From a virus (taxonomy: Duplodnaviria > Caudoviricetes): a stretch of 62,154 nt of DNA. A program made the position numbers and the translations under genes. Below, in pieces: positions 4,031 to 13,513 of this stretch; position 1 is the stretch's first letter; every line of letters begins with the position of its first letter. Under the pieces are notes generated by a model, which was given only the letters and a program-made list of their open reading frames with translations, ran no database searches and was not told where the DNA came from. The DNA is taken from positions 1 through 62,154 of the IMG/VR virus record IMGVR_UViG_3300008110_000717; one strand, 5' to 3'.

Positions 4031-6796
4031 TTACAAACGCGTTGTACTGGGCAACCCTGTTTCGTAACCAATGTCCCGCGCAACACGGGCAGGCGAAGCT
4101 TTAATGCCTTTGCCTTCTTCCAACTTCTTAGCGCGTTTAACTTCCGTAGAAACTTCGCGCTCTTCACGGCCAGCACGTTCGGTTTCTTTTGCTTTCTCGG
4201 CGGCTATCTCACTAGCTTTGCCTACTTCTTTTTTGGTGTACAACTGACCATATAAAGCATGAATAGCCTCACGCGCAGGAGTTATTTGCCCATTGAGAAT
4301 GGTTTCATATTCTTTAAGTTTGGCATTATATGTACGACGTGCCATTGCACGTTGATGAGGCGTAGCTTCTTTGTTTGTTGAAGCTGCCTTAAATGTTTCC
4401 ATTTCTTTCCAAAGGCGCTCGGCCTTCTGGATATACGATTCTTTAGCGTTGCCTTGTTTGCTGGTGATCTTACGCATTTGCGTTTCGACCTTATCCATAA
4501 TGCTGTCGTATTCTTCTTCATCTACAACACGTTTAACTGTGGTGCCGGGAAGATCAAACCGCTGCTGCATTTTTTCCAAAAGCTTTTCTTGCTCGGGCAA
4601 ACCACGTTGCCCACGCTTATCTGCTTCTTTCTGTGCGCGTTGAAGAATATCTATAGCTTTTTTGTCGTTGTTAACGACAGCGGTGCGTAGCAAATTATCG
4701 CGTTGAAACAACGCCAATGGACTTTCGGTAGGCGCAGGTTTCCCACCACGCAGCGCGTCAATCTCATCGTAGAGTTTGTTTAGCTGCTCTGATTTGGTAT
4801 TAACATCTGTGATGTGACGAGGAACAATGTCGCGCTTACCTACTGTCTGTAGGTTGTCCATTGCTTGCTTTAGCTTAATGTTAGCTGTAGCGATCTCTTC
4901 ATCAAACGTACCTGCTGGTTTGGTTTGAGCGGCTTCTTTTAAATCTGACAAACGTTCACGCGCAGCATTAACTTCAGCCATAGCCGCGTCTTGTCGTTCT
5001 TTACTTACTGCCTGTGGACCTGTTTTAACAAGTTGTACTAACTCCGTTGCCTGCCTTTCAGCTTCGGCTTCTTTAGCAGCGATGGCTTCTTCGTCTACTT
5101 TGCCCGGCAAAAATGTTTTAGCTTCAGCAAGACTTGCTTTTGCTGCGTTTAATTCTTCTTGTTCATTTTGCGATAATTTTTTCTTTGCTTGTAAAGTAGC
5201 AACAATATTTTCAAGATTTGCTACGTATTTATTAAGTGTGCCGTAATCAGCCGCAATACCTGTTTCAGGCGGCAATGGACCAGCGCCGGCTTCTAATACT
5301 TTCGTTGACTTAGGCTGCGCCTCGTCCGCTGCAAAGAGCGACAGTGTTTCACCTTTGGGTGTAGCTTGTATGTTTAATAGTTTGCTTTGTTCTGCAAACG
5401 TATTTTCTAATTTTGCACGTTCCGCTTTTAGCGCATCTAGTCTGTCGGCAAGTTTCGGAATCTTGTCCTCATCACCCAACTCACCAGCGTCCGACAGTGC
5501 TTTTTGCGCTGTCTTAATTTTCTTATCCAACGCACCCATTGTGTCAGCAGACGTTTTAGCAAACTCCTCTGCTGTTTGAGCAACACCACCTAGTTCTTCA
5601 ATCTTATTCTTTAGGCCAGACAACGATTCACGTTCAGACACAACTTGCGCAGACAGCTCTCTAACTTTAGTTGTGTCACCTGCAACAGCAGCTTCTTTCA
5701 TCTGCTCTCGCAATGCGTCAACACGCGGTTGTGCAGCCGCATACTGGTCCATTAGATCAATAACGTTGGGTTCTGGTGCAGCAAGTTCCGTCGGTGCGGG
5801 TTCTTCTACTGCAACTTCTGGCGCAGTCTCTGGCGGGCGATACTTAGCAACACCAATTTCACCGCGCTCTGTTGGGGGGATTGTTGTTATTTCACCGCGT
5901 TCACGTTCAGGCGTTGGAACAACTTCAGTCGCTACTTCAGGAGCAACTGCTTCTTCTCTAGGACGAGGCCGACCTTCTAACATAGTGCCCGGAATAGCTA
6001 ACGTGCCACCTAAGACAGCACCGCCTAAGAAATTCTCAAAGTATTCTTTCTTGGCTTCGGCATCTGTAAGACTAAGTCCGGCTTGTAAGCGTTCAAAGAC
6101 TTGTTGCCCGGCTTCAGTAGCGCCTTCGATACCTGCTGTTTTAGCCGCAGGTAAGATGTAACGTCCAGCAATACCCTTTGCTGCTTCTTCTGTAATAGGT
6201 ATGCCGGCTTTACCAAACAGCGTACGAATACCCGGCACGTATCTAAAACCAATAACGTCCAAGGCAGCTTGAGGTATGGCAGCAGCAATAGCTTTGCCTA
6301 CTTCTAGTTGTTCGCCGGTTTTGCCTGTATCTAGTTGACGCGATAGATCAGAACCAACAAACTGCGTAGCAGACGCAGCGCCTGCTGCTCCCATAGCGGC
6401 AAGTGCTCCCAATGGACTAGCAGCAGCACCCGCAACAACGGGTGCAGCCATATAGGGTAGTGATTGACCTAATAAGCCAGTAACATAATCAACGGGATGT
6501 TCAAGAAACTCAGGTTGTTGATATAGCGCAGCGGCTTTTTCTTTCTGGGCACGAGATTTGGCTTCAGCGCCTTCAACGCCTAAACCAGCAAGCCCTGCAT
6601 AGATGTCGCCTACTAAACTTTCTTTGCCTGACTTTAGCGCAGGCATGAAACCCGTTTTGGGTTTAGCAACAGGAGCTTCTGGAACCGGCGGGGACATTAC
6701 CCTTTGTAGTTCGGCTGCAAGAATCTGTGCAGACTCGGTATCTCCGGCTGCATCAGCGGCAATTAATGCCTGCTCAAGTTGTCTAATTGTCGCCAT
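4031..6796 (-). CDS. Giant internal virion/ejection protein, N-terminal part
   Basis: Ala/Gly-rich hydrophobic N-region (EGATEAGQQVFER, GGAVLGG) followed by long coiled coil; SD AGGTAG upstream; probably one gene with 114-4100. Confidence 0.7.
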   Translation of the reverse strand: MATIRQLEQALIAADAAGDTESAQILAAELQRVMSPPVPEAPVAKPKTGFMPALKSGKESLVGDIYAGLAGLGVEGAEAKSRAQKEKAAALYQQPEFLEHPVDYVTGLLGQSLPYMAAPVVAGAAASPLGALAAMGAAGAASATQFVGSDLSRQLDTGKTGEQLEVGKAIAAAIPQAALDVIGFRYVPGIRTLFGKAGIPITEEAAKGIAGRYILPAAKTAGIEGATEAGQQVFERLQAGLSLTDAEAKKEYFENFLGGAVLGGTLAIPGTMLEGRPRPREEAVAPEVATEVVPTPERERGEITTIPPTERGEIGVAKYRPPETAPEVAVEEPAPTELAAPEPNVIDLMDQYAAAQPRVDALREQMKEAAVAGDTTKVRELSAQVVSERESLSGLKNKIEELGGVAQTAEEFAKTSADTMGALDKKIKTAQKALSDAGELGDEDKIPKLADRLDALKAERAKLENTFAEQSKLLNIQATPKGETLSLFAADEAQPKSTKVLEAGAGPLPPETGIAADYGTLNKYVANLENIVATLQAKKKLSQNEQEELNAAKASLAEAKTFLPGKVDEEAIAAKEAEAERQATELVQLVKTGPQAVSKERQDAAMAEVNAARERLSDLKEAAQTKPAGTFDEEIATANIKLKQAMDNLQTVGKRDIVPRHITDVNTKSEQLNKLYDEIDALRGGKPAPTESPLALFQRDNLLRTAVVNNDKKAIDILQRAQKEADKRGQRGLPEQEKLLEKMQQRFDLPGTTVKRVVDEEEYDSIMDKVETQMRKITSKQGNAKESYIQKAERLWKEMETFKAASTNKEATPHQRAMARRTYNAKLKEYETILNGQITPAREAIHALYGQLYTKKEVGKASEIAAEKAKETERAGREEREVSTEVKRAKKLEEGKGIKASPARVARDIGYETGLPSTTRL

Positions 6797-6802
6797 ACGT
6801 TA

Positions 6803-8896
6803 CTACCTAGGTAGGTACTTATTCAGTAAACCTTCAATTTGTGGGTTTGATGCAACATTACTTACCCCAACCCCATTCGCTGCTAAGTACGATTGTAACG
6901 TAGGATACATTTGTTTAAAACTTTCGCCTGTAAGCGGGTTTTTAATTTCTGTGTCGTATGTACGGGCAAAGGCGGCAACCTGTTTGCCAGTTTGCATTTC
7001 TTGGTATGTATCAAACAATCCGGGTTCTTTTTGAAGTGCCCGCATTACACGTATTTGCTCTGGTTCTTTACCAAGCTGTTCCGTCATACCCCTATAATAA
7101 TTACTGAGTGCTTCTTGCTGTGCTTGCGCAAGTGCGGCTTTTTCACGCTCTCTCTTAGCGCCCATTGTAGCTATGCCTGAACGACCAAGGTTTTGTCCTA
7201 ACTGACTTAACATACCGCCTGCTTGACCGGGTGGGGCTTGTAGCATATTCAAACCCATCATGATCCAATCGTCATCAGTAAACCCACTTGTTTTCTTTTC
7301 GGGTATAGCTGTAGTGCCACGTTCTTCAATAGGCGCTCCAGCGGGCATTTCTTCTGTTTCAGGTTTACTAAAATCAAAGCCGGGTTCTTCACTACCTCGC
7401 ACAAATGGAGGTGCAGATACTTCACCGGGACCACGTGCCGCAGCGCCTGCCGCACCACCAGATAATTGACGGCCTACATCATAACGAGTGTCTACAGCTC
7501 TTCGTGCTTCTAGTGCTTGACGAGTACGAAGGTCCTCAAACCCTAAGTCAGAAGCACGGGCTTGGTCGCCCAGTAATTTTTGTTCTAGTTCGGCAGTACG
7601 CGCTTTGTCTGCTTCCAATCCTTGTTCCGGCGTTAGTCTTTCCGCAGGTTGGCCGGGTACACGTTCATCGGCTGCTTTAGCTCTTAAATCAGCTTGCGCT
7701 TGCTCAACTGTACGGCGACGAGCTAGTGCTTCTTCACCTAATGCTGCGGTTTCAGGAGCAACAGAAAATTCTTTACGTCCTGTTTCTAAAGCACGAGCTT
7801 GTTCAATCTCTTGCATCAACGGAGTTTTTGGTACTCGTGCTCGCGCAGCGGCTGCTACATCCGCAGTAAATTTAGAAGTAGGCGTAACTTCTGGTGCAGG
7901 ACCCGTCAATCGTGGGGCAGCTATTTTTTCTCTTGCTGCTGCCAACTCTGCTTCTGTTGCTAATGCTGCGGCTCGTGCTGATGGGCCTTTAGCTGATGGG
8001 CGTCTGGGTGCACCAATACCGGGTATATAAGCAGGTACTTTAAATTCTTCCAGCGCACGATAGGCTTCACCTAAAGATTCTTTACCTACTTCAGAACGTG
8101 GAGCAAACGTAGCAGCATCCATTGACTCTTCGTAAGTTAAAGGTTTGCCTGTGATTCGTGATAAGCCATAAGGCAGCAACGCGGTAGCAGGCGCAAACGC
8201 ACCTGACACAAGACTAGCCGCAGCTTCCGGCATCCCCGCTACATCGCGTAAAACTTTCGGTGCTTTACCAGCTTCAACTTTTTTACGTTCTGCTGCCTGC
8301 GCTTGCTCACGCCGTATTATTTCTTCAACAGGTAATCTTTGCTCAATTGCCGCTATTTGTTGTGCGCCTGTGGGTTTACCCAGTGGCGCTTCTGCTGCTT
8401 GCGCAGCAGGTAATGGTACGGCTTCAGCAATCTCACGTTTACGTTGAGCTTCTTTTTGACGTGCCAACATCTCTGGTGTACGCGGAGCTTCACGCGTAGC
8501 CATAGGTTCTATAGCACCTGCTGTTGTGAGCTTCTTTAAATAGTTAAACGGCTCTTGCTTGTTTGCCGTCTTAACATTTTCATGCAGTTTGTCAGCCACA
8601 AGCTGGCCGTTGTTTTGCTTTAAGTGCGCGTCTAGTACTGGCTCACCTTGGTTGTAAGCAACTGCAACTTTGGCTTTATCGCCTTTGTACTTTTTGTTTA
8701 AGTAGTCCAAGAACCCAAGCGACGCGTCCATGTTTTTATATGGGTCGCTGCGGTCTTTTGGAGAAATACCAAACTGCTTGGCAATATATTCTGTTAACTG
8801 CCCGATACCTTGAGGGCCTGTTTTAGATTTAGCTTTGGGATCGTAGTTAGACTCGATCTTAAAAATACCATCGACAAAGTCAGGATCAAGCCCCAA
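6803..8896 (-). CDS. Ejection protein with N-terminal lytic transglycosylase (SLT) domain
   Basis: IFKIESNYDPKAKS..GPQGIGQL, AYNQGE SLT motifs; TTG start uncertain. Confidence 0.8.
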   Translation of the reverse strand: MGLDPDFVDGIFKIESNYDPKAKSKTGPQGIGQLTEYIAKQFGISPKDRSDPYKNMDASLGFLDYLNKKYKGDKAKVAVAYNQGEPVLDAHLKQNNGQLVADKLHENVKTANKQEPFNYLKKLTTAGAIEPMATREAPRTPEMLARQKEAQRKREIAEAVPLPAAQAAEAPLGKPTGAQQIAAIEQRLPVEEIIRREQAQAAERKKVEAGKAPKVLRDVAGMPEAAASLVSGAFAPATALLPYGLSRITGKPLTYEESMDAATFAPRSEVGKESLGEAYRALEEFKVPAYIPGIGAPRRPSAKGPSARAAALATEAELAAAREKIAAPRLTGPAPEVTPTSKFTADVAAAARARVPKTPLMQEIEQARALETGRKEFSVAPETAALGEEALARRRTVEQAQADLRAKAADERVPGQPAERLTPEQGLEADKARTAELEQKLLGDQARASDLGFEDLRTRQALEARRAVDTRYDVGRQLSGGAAGAAARGPGEVSAPPFVRGSEEPGFDFSKPETEEMPAGAPIEERGTTAIPEKKTSGFTDDDWIMMGLNMLQAPPGQAGGMLSQLGQNLGRSGIATMGAKREREKAALAQAQQEALSNYYRGMTEQLGKEPEQIRVMRALQKEPGLFDTYQEMQTGKQVAAFARTYDTEIKNPLTGESFKQMYPTLQSYLAANGVGVSNVASNPQIEGLLNKYLPR

Positions 8897-9213
8897 CGCC
8901 GCTGCCTTCTGTCTAGGAGTTGTGGCAAGCCAGCCTGCATCTGCGGCGCAGCTTGCGGGGGCATAGCCTGTGGAGGCATATCTTGTTGCGGCATTTCTGG
9001 TTCACCAATCGCTGCAAGCGTTTGATCTACTACCGCAGGTTGCGGTTGTCCCGCAGCTCGCATAGCTTGCTCACGTTGCAAAGCTTTACGATCATTATCA
9101 ATATTTAGTGCCATCGACACTATAAACGGATCGTCTTTATGCAGCGTAGCAAATTCTTTTAACTGCTGTGGCGACATCCCCGCCATGCGTGTCTTTACAC
9201 TTTTATCGTACAT
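8794..9213 (-). CDS. Internal virion protein, probably the N-terminal part of the SLT protein
   Basis: Gln/Pro-rich; SD GGAG; overlaps the SLT ORF in another frame. Confidence 0.55.
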   Translation of the reverse strand: MYDKSVKTRMAGMSPQQLKEFATLHKDDPFIVSMALNIDNDRKALQREQAMRAAGQPQPAVVDQTLAAIGEPEMPQQDMPPQAMPPQAAPQMQAGLPQLLDRRQRRWGLILTLSMVFLRSSLTTIPKLNLKQALKVSGS

Positions 9214-9214
9214 A

Positions 9215-10495
9215 TTAGTCTCCGCTCATTCTCATGAGTGCTAACTCGGCTAACCCCGCAGGTCGATTGGAAACTTCTCCACCCTCTGCAAAGTACCCCA
9301 TACCTTTACCTAAGAAACCTAGTCCTGCTGCTTGTGACAACATGGATGGTGGCGCTTGGTATCCTGTTTGTACTCCTTGGGATAAAGGCAGTCCTCGGAA
9401 CATATCAGACATAAAGCCCAACTGCGAATACGGATACTGCTGTTGCTTCAAGAATTCTTGGTAGTCCGTATCAAGCCCTTGCTGTTCTAAACCTTGACGT
9501 TGCGAACCTGCTGCATTTAATGCGTTGATGATGTCTTTTTCTTGACCAAACTGAGTTTGCCCTAATTGCCCTAATTGCCCCGCAGCTTGCAGTTGTGTCT
9601 GTAAACCCTGCATACTAAGTCCTGCGCCATACTGGCGTGACTGTTCTTGTGCTTTTTGTGCTTCCAGATTGGCTTGCTGATTGAGCTGTTGTGCAGTAAG
9701 CCCTTGTTGTGCGGCCAGATTTTGCACACCCATAAGTGCTTGTAGGTTTTGTTGCCCTGTCTGGAAACCCATCTGCTGATTAGCCAACGCTGCTTGCATA
9801 GCGCGGCCTTGCTCTGTTCCGTATAAGTTTTGAGCTTGCTCGAATGCAGTTTGATACCCACGTCCAGTGATGTCACCTAACTGTTGCTGTAAATTTCTTT
9901 GGCGCTCTGCTTCAACAATAGCTTGACGTGACCCACCATAAGCCCCAGCGCCTACTGCTTGAGCCTGTTGCTGTTGTGCGGCAATATCAGACTGCCTACG
10001 AGCTTCACGAAGCTGTGGCTGCAACGCCTGTTGAACATAAGGCGACATATAACGCGATGCTTCACCCGGCTCAGTAAACGATCCTGTGTAAACGGCCTCG
10101 GGACCTTGCATTTGATACTGCTGCAAGAACGCATTTTTAGCGCGTTGTTCAGCAATGTTAGACGTATCGTATTGAACGTTACCTGCTCTAAGTCCTGCCA
10201 AGCCCGCCATTTGCGTAGCTTGCCCAAGCTGCTGAGACGGTCCAAGGTTAGCTACGTTCTGCTGTGCTTGAAGCTGCATAGGGTCGAAACCCGCAATTCT
10301 TTGCCCTTGGTATGGTTTGTATGGTTGGTCAGATAAAGCCTGCGCCTTACCCAACATTTTTTCGACATAAGGTTTAGCGTATTCAGGAATGGACGTTTGC
10401 GTAACCGTTTGGCTGGTTGGCTGACCACCGCCACCTTCATCCATATTGAATGTGTACCAGTGAACGTTAAACAAAAACTTTAAAAAATTAACCAT
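9215..10495 (-). CDS. DNA ejection/pilot-like internal virion protein
   Basis: GGGGQPTSQTVTQTSIPEYAKPY, YMSPY, GAYGGSRQA, Gln-rich; SD AAGGAG 7 nt before the ATG at 10495. Confidence 0.7.
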   Translation of the reverse strand: MVNFLKFLFNVHWYTFNMDEGGGGQPTSQTVTQTSIPEYAKPYVEKMLGKAQALSDQPYKPYQGQRIAGFDPMQLQAQQNVANLGPSQQLGQATQMAGLAGLRAGNVQYDTSNIAEQRAKNAFLQQYQMQGPEAVYTGSFTEPGEASRYMSPYVQQALQPQLREARRQSDIAAQQQQAQAVGAGAYGGSRQAIVEAERQRNLQQQLGDITGRGYQTAFEQAQNLYGTEQGRAMQAALANQQMGFQTGQQNLQALMGVQNLAAQQGLTAQQLNQQANLEAQKAQEQSRQYGAGLSMQGLQTQLQAAGQLGQLGQTQFGQEKDIINALNAAGSQRQGLEQQGLDTDYQEFLKQQQYPYSQLGFMSDMFRGLPLSQGVQTGYQAPPSMLSQAAGLGFLGKGMGYFAEGGEVSNRPAGLAELALMRMSGD

Positions 10496-10934
10496 TTAAA
10501 TGCTCCTTGCGGTAATCGTCATACCGTTCAATCATTATATGTTTCCATACTTCCGGCATTATTTCTGTTGCCTTTTGCGGCCCAACACAAACATGCACAG
10601 CATACGCAATAATATTACCAACCGCATACCGTAAACCGTGAGCAATTTCTATTCCGTGTTCATCTTTATTTTTTTCATAGTGATTAGCCGTTTGATAGGC
10701 AGACACTACAGAAATCCACATAGGTAAAACTGAGTACTGTATGTTTTGATAAAATTTATTTAAGGGGAGATACACTAAACAAATCATAAACGCATTATTT
10801 ATATTTTCTTCAGGTATTTCTTTATCTTTATCTACCAAATCATCCCAAGCATGTGCTAAATCCACAAACATGCGGTACATGGAAAGCGCGTCTTCATTGC
10901 CCCCAAACCACTCAAGTTTTCCTATTTCTTTCAT
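10488..10934 (-). CDS. Hypothetical protein with DDxxD motif (isoprenoid synthase/prenyltransferase-like)
   Basis: HAWDDLVDKD in a predicted all-helical 148-aa protein; AT-rich; overlaps both neighbours. Confidence 0.45.
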   Translation of the reverse strand: MKEIGKLEWFGGNEDALSMYRMFVDLAHAWDDLVDKDKEIPEENINNAFMICLVYLPLNKFYQNIQYSVLPMWISVVSAYQTANHYEKNKDEHGIEIAHGLRYAVGNIIAYAVHVCVGPQKATEIMPEVWKHIMIERYDDYRKEHLNG

Positions 10935-13513
10935 GCAGGTAAATACTTATCGGCTTTACTGTTAACCGCTACTTTATTTTTACCAACGCTTTTCTTTCTG
11001 GCTTTTTGTACACGATCCATCATTGCATACAGCTTACGAGCACCAGCTTCGGTAGAGCCATTACCAATTTCTGACACAATCCGGGCGGGTACAACGAATT
11101 CACCATCAGCAAGACGAGCGGGCTGACGATCACCAATAGAAGCAGGGATAGAATCACTGACCCCATCACCCGGACCACGCAGTAGACGACCTCCATCAGA
11201 GTACCCTCCTAAATGCGAAATTCCCCCCGACGCCATTGGTTTTACAGGCGGTGGAGGCAGCGCCATAGATGGCGCACCAAAAGCCGCAGGTTGTGTAGCA
11301 GAACCGTATTCAGGAGAATAAAAACCAGCAGAATAAATATTCCCAGAGCTAGTAAACCTTGGTGCATTTATTCCCGGTGCTCCAGCACGGGCTACTGTTG
11401 GGCCAATACCATACGCTTGTGCTTGCCGCGCTACGTTTTGAGAAGCTAATAAAGATGCCAGTTGTGCTTGCTCTGCGCTACCTTGAGAAATGTTGGTACC
11501 TTTTGGCGCATACATCTGTTCAAGCGCAGATAAATTAGTTTGCTTTGCAGGGGCTGTAAACTGCATACCTTGTGCAGCTTTACTCATTTGATCGGCTAAT
11601 ATTTTATTTGAATCTGTATAGTAATTAGTCAGACCAAGTTGTTCCGTGGCGCTTTTAGGAGCCGCTAATGCTCCAGCCAATTGTTGTTGACCAGCAGCAC
11701 CTAACGTAAATTTAGGCGTACCAACACCCGACGTTTGTCCTGTTAGTTTTTGCGTATACAAGTCCGTCCCCATCATTGCTTCTTTAACTTTTTCAGGGGT
11801 TGTTTTCATGCTTGTATATTTATTTAGTTCTTCTGACGTTGGCGCACGTCCAAATGTCTGCCTAAATATATTAGCTACATCCGTGGGTTTAGCTTGGTTT
11901 TTGGGGTCGGCTGCAAATGCTGCTTGTTTAGCAGTTTCGGCGGATTCAGTAGCTGTTTTACCGCGTTGCTCAAAAGCTTTTTGCTGATACGCTGCGACCT
12001 CACCTTTAGCGTTTTTCCCAAAGTAATCACGTACGCCAGCTAAAGTAAAATCTGATTTCATCAAGCTAGCTATCTCTTCGGGTGTAGCGTTACGACCTAA
12101 CATCGCATTTGCTACGCCATTAATACGTTCTGCTGCAATTTTATCTACTACCGCCTTGTTTTCTGGCGTCATTGCTATTTGTTTTTTGTACTGAAATTTA
12201 TTAGTAAAGTAAGGCAAAGATTTAATACTTTTAGCAATGTCCTCTTCAGACCGTTTGTTTCCAGCAACTTTTTGCATATAGTCTGCCGGTACTTCTCCAG
12301 TACCACCCATTCGCTGCCAAATACTTGTTATGTCTTCTGGAGACATAATCTTTTTAGTTTTACCCCAACCTGCGTATTTGGCAGATGTTGTATCTTCCGC
12401 TGGATTTGCACTAGCTTTGCTGGCGTCCATTTGACCGGTGGAGTTGTTATATCCGACTCCACCTGTCGCAAACGAAACAGTTCCACCATCGGCAAATCTT
12501 TGAGCGCCAGTATAGGGGTCAGTTGGGAGATAGCCCGGTGGGTTAATTAAGTTCTCGGATATAGGGCGCTCTGCCGGAGTGGCATAACTTGGCGTTGTTT
12601 GGTTAGCCATTGGGTAGCGCGTGTTTGCCCCAATTGCCGCATTACGCGACATCTCTTCAACGGGAAGACCACCATTACTTAGTGCTAGTAAACCGCCCGT
12701 AGCTGCACGGTATTCAGACCCCGGCGCTTTGTAGGGAGTTCCTGCTGTGTACACGTCTTGGAAGTACCGACCGTAAGCGTCGGGTGTGGAGCTTACATCG
12801 CGCTCTAACGTGTATGGACGAATAAGTCCGGCATTTTTTGCACCGCCGCCTAGTTCTGACATCTTTTCAAGTTGGTCGTAATAACTACCCATAGCAGTGC
12901 TACCTAGCGAAGCCACGCCAGAATAAGGCGTTTGCCCCATACCTGCCATAAATGCTGAACGACCACCTTCTGTACCTAGTGCTTTAAAGCCTTCAAATGC
13001 TGTGCTTAACGGATTTGCTGCTGCGGCAGCAGCAGGAGCAGCGGTAGCGGCATTACTTGCAATAATTGGAGCATATCCAGCAGCACCAGCCGCAGCAGGA
13101 GCGGCAGCAGCACCAGCAGCACCAGCAGCACCAGCAGCACCCGCACCGGCAGCACCCGCACCGGCAGCAGTCAACCCACCCATTAGTCCAGCGCCGCCAT
13201 AAGCACCCAAGCCCATCATTAGACCTTTACCCAAACTGCCGGTGGCTAATGTTCCAGCTCCACCCACCATCAAAGCTGCCATAGGGGCACCAACGCCTGT
13301 TGCAGTCAAAGCCGCACCGGCTATCATAGGAAGAATAGACGATAGGAACCCGGCTTCAGGCAAACCTGTTTGTGGGTTTATAGTCAGGGAGCCACCGTGC
13401 GCCATAGCAAGTGCTTGCAAACCATGCACCTCTTTTGGGGTCATGTGAACGAGCATTTTGTCGTCGCCGCGTCCAGCGGTTTGCATTTGTTGGGCTAAGG
13501 TATGAAGGCTCAT
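10931..13513 (-). CDS. Internal virion/ejection protein
   Basis: N-terminal GRGDDKMLVHMTPKEV..NPQTGLPE, Gly/Ala hydrophobic tract, C-terminal GPGDGVSDSIPA..RLADGEFVVPA domain. Confidence 0.7.
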   Translation of the reverse strand: MSLHTLAQQMQTAGRGDDKMLVHMTPKEVHGLQALAMAHGGSLTINPQTGLPEAGFLSSILPMIAGAALTATGVGAPMAALMVGGAGTLATGSLGKGLMMGLGAYGGAGLMGGLTAAGAGAAGAGAAGAAGAAGAAAAPAAAGAAGYAPIIASNAATAAPAAAAAANPLSTAFEGFKALGTEGGRSAFMAGMGQTPYSGVASLGSTAMGSYYDQLEKMSELGGGAKNAGLIRPYTLERDVSSTPDAYGRYFQDVYTAGTPYKAPGSEYRAATGGLLALSNGGLPVEEMSRNAAIGANTRYPMANQTTPSYATPAERPISENLINPPGYLPTDPYTGAQRFADGGTVSFATGGVGYNNSTGQMDASKASANPAEDTTSAKYAGWGKTKKIMSPEDITSIWQRMGGTGEVPADYMQKVAGNKRSEEDIAKSIKSLPYFTNKFQYKKQIAMTPENKAVVDKIAAERINGVANAMLGRNATPEEIASLMKSDFTLAGVRDYFGKNAKGEVAAYQQKAFEQRGKTATESAETAKQAAFAADPKNQAKPTDVANIFRQTFGRAPTSEELNKYTSMKTTPEKVKEAMMGTDLYTQKLTGQTSGVGTPKFTLGAAGQQQLAGALAAPKSATEQLGLTNYYTDSNKILADQMSKAAQGMQFTAPAKQTNLSALEQMYAPKGTNISQGSAEQAQLASLLASQNVARQAQAYGIGPTVARAGAPGINAPRFTSSGNIYSAGFYSPEYGSATQPAAFGAPSMALPPPPVKPMASGGISHLGGYSDGGRLLRGPGDGVSDSIPASIGDRQPARLADGEFVVPARIVSEIGNGSTEAGARKLYAMMDRVQKARKKSVGKNKVAVNSKADKYLPA

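Follow-up and report, generated by a model that had tools for sequence, protein, structure and literature searches.

A small phage protein resembling isoprenoid synthases occupies the gene slot before the first ejection protein, whose N-terminus varies with the slot occupant

Short-tailed phages such as T7 and P22 carry a small gene directly upstream of the gene for their first ejection protein. In T7, gp13 (138 amino acids, aa) directly precedes gp14, which starts MCW; in P22, gp14 (151 aa, DUF2824/PF11039) directly precedes gp7. T7 gp13 is usually described as a 'probable scaffold protein', which is also how Pfam describes its family (PF11090), and P22 gp14 as a 'head morphogenesis' protein. 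To our knowledge, the roles of both have been unsettled for decades. A second point of comparison lies outside phages: Bacillus ComQ, which is IPPS-like, attaches a prenyl group to a Trp of ComX, a peptide encoded next to ComQ. Here we analyse the occupant of this gene slot in a 62,154-nucleotide stretch of viral DNA (Caudoviricetes; IMG/VR record IMGVR_UViG_3300008110_000717), hereafter the window. It is a 148-aa gene with an Asp-rich DDxxD motif, followed directly by the gene for a 426-aa ejection protein, its partner.

Several published statements bear on the slot. Passages of a review (PMC8954989) equate T7 gp14 with P22 gp7 as the outer-membrane ejection protein. In the HHpred comparisons excerpted from Hardies 2016 (PMC4819975), acetyltransferases are matched by T7 gp13 and also by its syntenic counterpart in phiRIO-1-like phages. 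The JC1 paper, in the passage on the GNAT of the equivalent slot of Bcep22-like phages, presents it as a RimL-domain 'moron' that might alter gene regulation. For P22, the sequence record has the first 20 residues of gp7 cut by host OpdA, the next residues being KGGKGG; an excerpt of a further paper (PMC8402733) gives KGGKG as the mature N-terminus and reports a burst of ~60% when these 20 residues are deleted. Our search of the literature on phage ejection proteins together with prenyltransferases, isoprenoid synthases or lipidation returned nothing on the DDxxD slot family.

The window gene holds the position of T7 gp13 and P22 gp14, directly upstream of the first ejection protein and within the same size range (~140–160 aa). 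All locus counts below derive from 245 loci picked by similarity searches and are not a census; 114 unique enzyme–partner combinations were taken from 140 loci, and 152 loci were reduced to 42 enzyme clusters at ~60% identity. The downstream gene overlaps the slot gene or starts within 5 nt of it in 107 of the 114 unique loci, and the two genes are translationally coupled. In position, size (138–159 aa) and coupling, the window protein is like T7 gp13 (PF11090), P22 gp14 (PF11039/DUF2824) and the GNATs Bcep22 gp69, SopranoGao gp10, Gerry gp24 and POI1126 gp24. It differs from all of them in its unrelated sequence, its predicted all-helical fold and the lack of a common Pfam family: hhalign gave a probability of 0.7% against P22 gp14, and no match to PF11090 or PF11039 was found.

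The 148-aa open reading frame (ORF) is a real and strongly conserved phage gene, far beyond chance. It belongs to a large family confined to phages, with 1152 homologues at E≤1e-3 and 615 clusters at 50% identity, and its closest language-model clusters are 89–100% viral. The protein has no Pfam or NCBIfam match, and none of 124 diverse family members has a Pfam match; its sole family match is phrog_21390, of unknown function. Among 50,697 cultured-phage records only one, Achromobacter phage CF418P1, contains a match, with the slot gene and its partner at 5369–5842 and 5844–7031 of that record. The Asp-rich motif lies in HAWDDLVDKD (residues 28–37), and the aspartates on which the original prediction, an earlier reading of the window's letters, had turned are conserved: in an alignment of the 124 members, D31, D35 and R102 are invariant, while A16, W30, D32, D37, N59, F61, E87 and G118 are at least 90% conserved.

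The same slot is held by a RimL-like GNAT acyltransferase in many podoviruses of ~60 kb. The partner protein of the Achromobacter phage has homologues in 71 cultured-phage records, and in all six cultured phages that were opened a GNAT of ~141–153 aa lies just upstream of the homologue. This agrees with Hardies 2016 and bears out the expectation that similar podoviruses carry a GNAT acyltransferase here. The gene is annotated 'acyl-CoA N-acyltransferase' in SopranoGao, Bcep22, POI1126 and Gerry, and is an unannotated plus-strand ORF in the other two. In Erwinia phage PEp14 (locus L247, 846–1307, +), a hypothetical ORF on the opposite strand is annotated in place of the GNAT-like gene; in Sinorhizobium phage PBC5 (locus L251, 971–1423, +), there is an annotation gap. 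Both genes are homologous to Bcep22 gp69.

Relatives of the window ejection protein follow a comparable pattern. At 16 of their loci, the slot holds a ~140–159-aa protein whose closest named language-model clusters carry Acetyltransf_1 (scores 0.91–0.95), and these GNAT-like proteins yielded one weak acetyltransferase PHROG match (E 0.003); these leads point to a GNAT nature. At one locus (L242), the GNAT-like gene is split over two frames. By hhalign, the GNAT-like proteins have no detectable similarity to T7 gp13 or P22 gp14. The slot is empty in eight contig loci and in cyanophage MinM2, where the ejection gene directly follows a homologue of the 860-aa protein encoded upstream of the slot in the window. 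Partners encoded after the DDxxD gene itself belong to three or more families that are unrelated to each other: that of the window protein, that of the Achromobacter/Bcep22 proteins and one that is P22 gp7-like (locus L227, E 5e-9). A label of 'T7 gp14-like' for partners with an MP[DSN] start was dropped, the best BLASTP E being 0.15; only L227 matches P22 gp7. Within families of homologous partners, DDxxD gene and GNAT are found in place of each other.

The N-terminus of the partner varies with the slot occupant. Downstream of DDxxD genes, 68 of the 114 unique partners contain a run of at least three Gly within their first 60 residues. This run is preceded by at least ten residues in 58 of the 68 partners and by four or fewer in seven, and in most leader-bearing partners it begins at residue 18–26. 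Among the 42 enzyme clusters, partners with a leader of at least 10 aa and a Gly run are the most frequent (13/42, two with a Cys just before the run), followed by a short start with a Gly run (9/42), an MC, MCC, MGC or MGCC start (8/42), an MP[DSN] start without a run (5/42) and an MGW start (2/42), with other N-termini in the remaining 5/42. Cys at positions 2–4 occurs in 8/42 partners versus 4/531 other ORFs of the same loci (Fisher p 1.7e-7), and in aligned homologous partners MGC, MGW and MCC stand at the same positions. A lipobox or signal peptide was considered for the Cys-bearing N-termini and rejected by eye, because they lack a hydrophobic h-region and belong to virion proteins that are assembled in the cytoplasm.

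Different starts accompany the other states of the slot. Partners of GNAT-like genes (13 unique N-termini from 18 loci) begin with MG or MS and a Gly/Ser run: none of the 13 has Cys or Trp at positions 2–4, 12 start M-[GSA] and seven start MG. In three cultured phages, a long hydrophobic extension precedes the same ...KKG(G)SS... point. Where the slot is empty (the eight contig loci and MinM2), the ejection protein has neither leader nor Gly run. The proposal of an exchangeable module of enzyme and leader is thus upheld in the sense that the slot enzyme and the N-terminal extension co-vary. In 41 loci with a leader, moreover, the more alike the enzymes are, the more alike are the leaders (rho 0.18, a value reached by 1/500 permutations), whereas leaders show no such relation to the ejection-protein body (rho 0.02, reached by 140/500). 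Two further locus scans added little: one with P0231 found no locus, and one with the L203 partner found one.

Several observations concern the joint between leader and body. The same class of leader is joined to ejection bodies of 335–797 aa whose sequences differ after the Gly run, and the repetitive GGN codons (10424–10435 in the window, and their equivalents) may serve as a recombination joint between modules. At locus L244, a relative of the ejection protein is preceded by a protein (656–2047) that itself begins MSTGKGGGGGGKGG, so that Gly runs at the N-terminus are not confined to the ejection protein within the module.

The gene order recalls ComQ and ComX: a gene for a class-I-like Asp-rich enzyme lies directly upstream of, and overlaps, the gene of its proposed substrate (by 8 nt in the window), and the leader class of the window contains a Trp. 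The original prediction had accordingly proposed a ComQ-like enzyme that prenylates the leader Trp. Trp is indeed present at position 13 in 13 of the 14 leaders of the window class, the predicted fold resembles the ComQ type (IPPS-like), and, where homologous partners are aligned, some have MGW where others have MGC. However, only 18 of the 68 Gly-run N-termini have a Trp before the run (15 of 68 have a Cys), a common leader class, MLIPNKFNGY..DG.R.Y, contains neither Trp nor Cys, and many partners have no leader. The enzyme is also half the length of ComQ, with one Asp-rich motif, and the partner in the window is a 426-aa virion protein rather than a pheromone. Trp as the target is not supported by these counts; Trp-specific prenylation is unlikely as a general rule, and we consider the ComQ-like model very improbable.

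Translation of the leader bears on any reading that involves it, and the Trp-containing leader had been taken as the real N-terminus in preference to an internal start. A Shine-Dalgarno sequence, AAGGAG, precedes the ATG at 10495, and nothing comparable was seen before the internal ATG of the ejection gene. An (A/G)AGGAG is retained at all but one of 13 related loci (12); as this stretch also encodes part of the 148-aa protein, its conservation has two possible causes. Among the 14 leaders of the same class, F9 and F16 are invariant and K6, P11 and W13 are at least 90% conserved. Nucleotide differences in leader codons 4–17 number 708 at third positions versus 381 and 284 at the others, and 393 of the 879 differing codon pairs are synonymous. 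Because of the AAGGAG spacing, the leader conservation and the third-position bias, the start at 10495 stands and the leader is translated, as had been assumed.

The cleaved 20-aa leader of P22 gp7 is the closest precedent. In both phages, a 20-aa leader followed by a Gly-rich stretch forms the start of the first ejection protein, downstream of a morphogenesis gene of ~150 aa. The two differ in that they share no sequence similarity, that the P22 slot gene belongs to another family and that cleavage is known for P22, whereas the window leader has been read off the DNA. The precedent lends itself to a non-catalytic explanation: the slot protein could be an assembly chaperone or escort that holds the ejection protein, or its N-terminus, soluble until it is loaded into the procapsid, after which a host oligopeptidase would cut the leader as in P22. 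The slot position and tight coupling fit such an escort, as does the Pfam description of the T7 gp13 family, and the OpdA-cut leader and the KGGKG mature start of gp7 have the same shape as the 20-aa leader and GGGG of the window. The hydrophobic cavity of an isoprenoid-synthase fold might also hold an aromatic peptide. Against this, invariant D31 and D35, together with D32, D37 and an invariant Arg, are typical of a metal/diphosphate site and not of a peptide clamp; the alternative slot occupants have enzyme folds (GNAT); some of the genes have a methyltransferase fused to them or beside them; and the gene is kept where the partner has no leader at all. We regard an escort role, the chief rival of the reading favoured below, as unlikely, while taking it seriously.

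To place the 148-aa protein structurally, we used an AlphaFold2 model built from the alignment, as single-sequence prediction was poor (predicted local distance difference test, pLDDT, 57). The model has seven helices (pLDDT 96.4; predicted template modelling score 0.88); residues 14–35 form a helix whose C-terminal end carries the Asp-rich motif. Whole-length structural alignments were obtained only with trans-isoprenyl diphosphate synthases, at modest Z scores of 6.5–8.0 and over stretches of ~160–215 residues of these 234–330-residue enzymes. The structural neighbours include S. aureus heptaprenyl diphosphate synthase (5h9d_D), MoeN5 (5b02_A) and S. solfataricus hexaprenyl diphosphate synthase (2azj_A). 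A Foldseek search of the PDB returned nothing at E≤0.001, its best row being an isoprenoid synthase at E 2.1, and a structure search of BFVD returned only four uncharacterised members of the slot family. Isoprenoid-synthase types make up three of the four closest named language-model clusters (scores 0.76–0.78, to be read as leads), and the sole IspB segment aligned by hhalign places the motif on the region of the first Asp-rich motif. Around the first Asp-rich motif, the modelled 148-aa protein thus bears a modest resemblance to the core of trans-isoprenyl diphosphate synthases, which have the class I isoprenoid fold. Members of that family (PF00348) have 250–350 aa and two Asp-rich motifs that face one cavity, whereas the slot protein has half this length, one motif and a place in a phage virion module. 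It therefore resembles these enzymes and is not a member of their family; of the isoprenoid-synthase assignment made originally, the fold likeness stands, at modest Z, and the family membership falls.

Some relatives carry a second domain or have a further enzyme beside them. Three of the 13 longer relatives contain a fused Methyltransf_11 domain, which can come before or after the DDxxD part, and a methyltransferase of ~223 aa adjoins the DDxxD gene in 5 of 119 unique loci from two unbiased locus sets. It is a generic class I S-adenosylmethionine-dependent enzyme, fused or adjacent in further metagenomic loci as well. Its placement varies: upstream in L185, L190, L192, L196 and L200, downstream in L188, and fused in L182 and L183. 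The methyltransferase could provide a second modification step. One single metagenomic sequence of 315 aa (P0152) is a tandem duplicate of the domain with both DDxxD motifs intact, which hints that the working unit of the slot protein may be a dimer.

A methyltransferase would also suit a small-molecule pathway, and the slot protein might be a small-molecule enzyme that has nothing to do with the ejection protein: a pyrophosphohydrolase, say, or the product of an accessory 'moron' gene for isoprenoid or nucleotide metabolism, located in the virion module by chance. The passage in the JC1 paper that treats the GNAT of the equivalent Bcep22-like slot as a moron agrees with this idea. It sits poorly with a gene that immediately precedes the first ejection protein whichever of at least three unrelated ejection families this belongs to, and that is coupled to it in 107/114 loci, and with a partner N-terminus that changes with the slot occupant. 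We consider it improbable.

From the enzyme-like conservation, the fixed position, the interchange with GNATs and the occupant-dependent extension, we infer that slot proteins act on the N-terminus of their partner. The 148-aa protein would most likely be a Mg2+-dependent transferase, and it would modify the ejection protein on its flexible N-terminal extension while this is still in the cytoplasm and not yet packaged. Its substrate would be the ~20-aa hydrophobic leader, or an N-terminal Cys or Trp, followed by poly-Gly, with the Gly run as a flexible tether. A prenyl or similar diphosphate-activated group is our best guess for what is transferred, and such a tag might help the first-ejected protein to engage the host outer membrane. 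That the slot protein transfers a diphosphate-activated, probably prenyl, group to the N-terminal extension is the reading we tentatively favour, at a confidence somewhat short of even.

Several results weigh against this transferase reading. PF00348 matched neither the 148-aa protein, nor the 124 members, nor anything else in the window, whereas 14/14 control genomes gave a match. Alignment with hhalign to the single sequences of E. coli IspA and IspB gave probabilities of 0.3% and 2.1%, and PDB sequence searches (phmmer and profile) produced no significant match for the 148-aa protein or its family. With its 148 aa, the slot protein reaches only half the length of known prenyl synthases, and the conserved columns of the 124 sequences contain no second acidic motif. 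No acceptor residue is universal: the five MP[DSN] clusters lack Gly run, Cys and Trp, and five more fit no class. Finally, the leader–enzyme correlation noted above is small, and since adjacent DNA is linked, physical linkage could yield it without function, so that by itself it is no proof of one. A complex prediction with two 148-aa copies and residues 1–70 of the ejection protein scored 0.09 against a mark of 0.32, which speaks neither for nor against binding.

A wider version of the transferase reading covers both occupants. Short-tailed phages might possess a dedicated lipidation system in which a RimL/NMT-like GNAT acylates an MG start, or a half-size class I prenyltransferase alkylates a Cys, a Trp or the leader, and the tag drives the first-ejected protein into the outer membrane. 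We hold this broader scheme to be doubtful at present.

The coordinates of the locus are collected in Table 1.

Table 1. Features of the slot gene and its surroundings in the window.
Feature	Position	Strand	Match or evidence
697-aa internal virion protein, N-terminal SLT transglycosylase domain, T7 gp16-like role	6803..8896	-	PF01464 E 3.4e-16; phrog_342 internal virion protein with endolysin domain
426-aa ejection protein, first of the ejection module, begins MVNFLKFLFNVHWYTFNMDE-GGGG	9215..10495	-	phrog_4287 'DNA ejection protein', E 3.9e-14
GGGG tract directly after the leader	10424..10435	-	
20-codon N-terminal leader MVNFLKFLFNVHWYTFNMDE of the ejection protein	10436..10495	-	conservation at the protein level in 14 homologues and third-position substitution bias
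148-aa slot gene, predicted all-helical, DDxxDxD motif, mini isoprenoid-synthase-like	10488..10934	-	
8-nt overlap ATGGTTAA of the 148-aa gene stop and the ejection gene start	10488..10495	-	
AAGGAG Shine-Dalgarno, 7 nt 5' of the ATG at 10495	10503..10508	-	
WDDLVDKD codons (residues 30–37), Asp-rich motif of the slot-gene family	10824..10847	-	
860-aa virion-module protein upstream of the slot gene	10931..13513	-	conserved C-terminal motif

The window, which has direct repeats at its termini, represents a complete phage genome. It encodes a terminase, a portal, a DNA polymerase and a long minus-strand virion module, and by terminase its closest cultured relatives are Pelagibacter phages HTVC027P and HTVC023P (50–53% identity). 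The ORF with HAWDDLVDKD, the overlap of its stop with the next start and the leader-GGGG beginning of the next product are all present as first described. Its placement between two ejection genes is half borne out: the downstream protein matches an ejection family and has homologues in cyanophage MinM2 and viral contigs, whereas the 860-aa upstream protein, whose stop overlaps the start of the slot gene by 4 nt, matches no Pfam or PHROG family. The C-terminal ~75 residues of the 860-aa protein end in a conserved GDG.SD.IPA......PA.LADGEFVVPA...V motif, which the upstream protein shares at 59 of 119 unique related loci. Only this C-terminus resembles MinM2: residues 785–860 are 45.6% identical to its 'calcium-binding protein', and the matching MinM2 gene directly precedes the ejection gene. 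On the other side of the ejection gene, the 697-aa SLT-domain ORF, listed with a TTG start, shares ~100 nt with the 139-aa ORF before it (8794–9213, -), and the SLT protein probably has its true start further in.

The 148-aa ORF is AT-rich, as had been noted, with a GC content of 0.365 versus 0.474 for the genome. The low GC sits in codon positions 1 and 2: GC at second positions is 0.268, while that at third positions (GC3), 0.322, lies within the 0.31–0.40 of the neighbouring genes. Low GC therefore reflects amino-acid composition and is no signature of foreign DNA, which rules out the AT-rich tract as a mark of horizontal transfer and with it the suggestion that it marks an acquired module.

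Partners of the Achromobacter/Bcep22 type have features of their own. Their C-terminal ~100 residues (L001 5844–7031; L203 6440–7606; L208 6437–7579) form an SD...KE(N)I...PV..W.Y domain, which is annotated as an intramolecular chaperone or endosialidase chaperone (S74-like) in Serratia phage Parlo and Ochrobactrum phage POI1126. A self-cleaving C-terminal domain would be unusual on an ejection-type protein. In Bcep22-like phages, a PAPS reductase gene directly follows the partner virion protein inside the virion module (Bcep22 gp73, L248 2310–3038; Gerry cysH, L250 2310–3035).

The slot before the first ejection protein is thus filled interchangeably by two unrelated enzyme-like folds, with the N-terminus of the ejection protein changing accordingly and its extension gone where the slot is empty. 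This turns the old puzzle of T7 gp13 and P22 gp14 into a concrete, testable question, namely whether the N-terminus of the first ejection protein carries a covalent modification. If the lipid-tag reading were true, no class I prenyltransferase known so far would be smaller than the 148-aa protein, which might dimerise to restore an active site with two motifs. Were such a modification real, it would represent a new class of phage-encoded protein lipidation and provide a minimal prenyltransferase scaffold; if not, the family would be a very abundant assembly factor that has no Pfam or NCBIfam model and adopts an unexpected fold.

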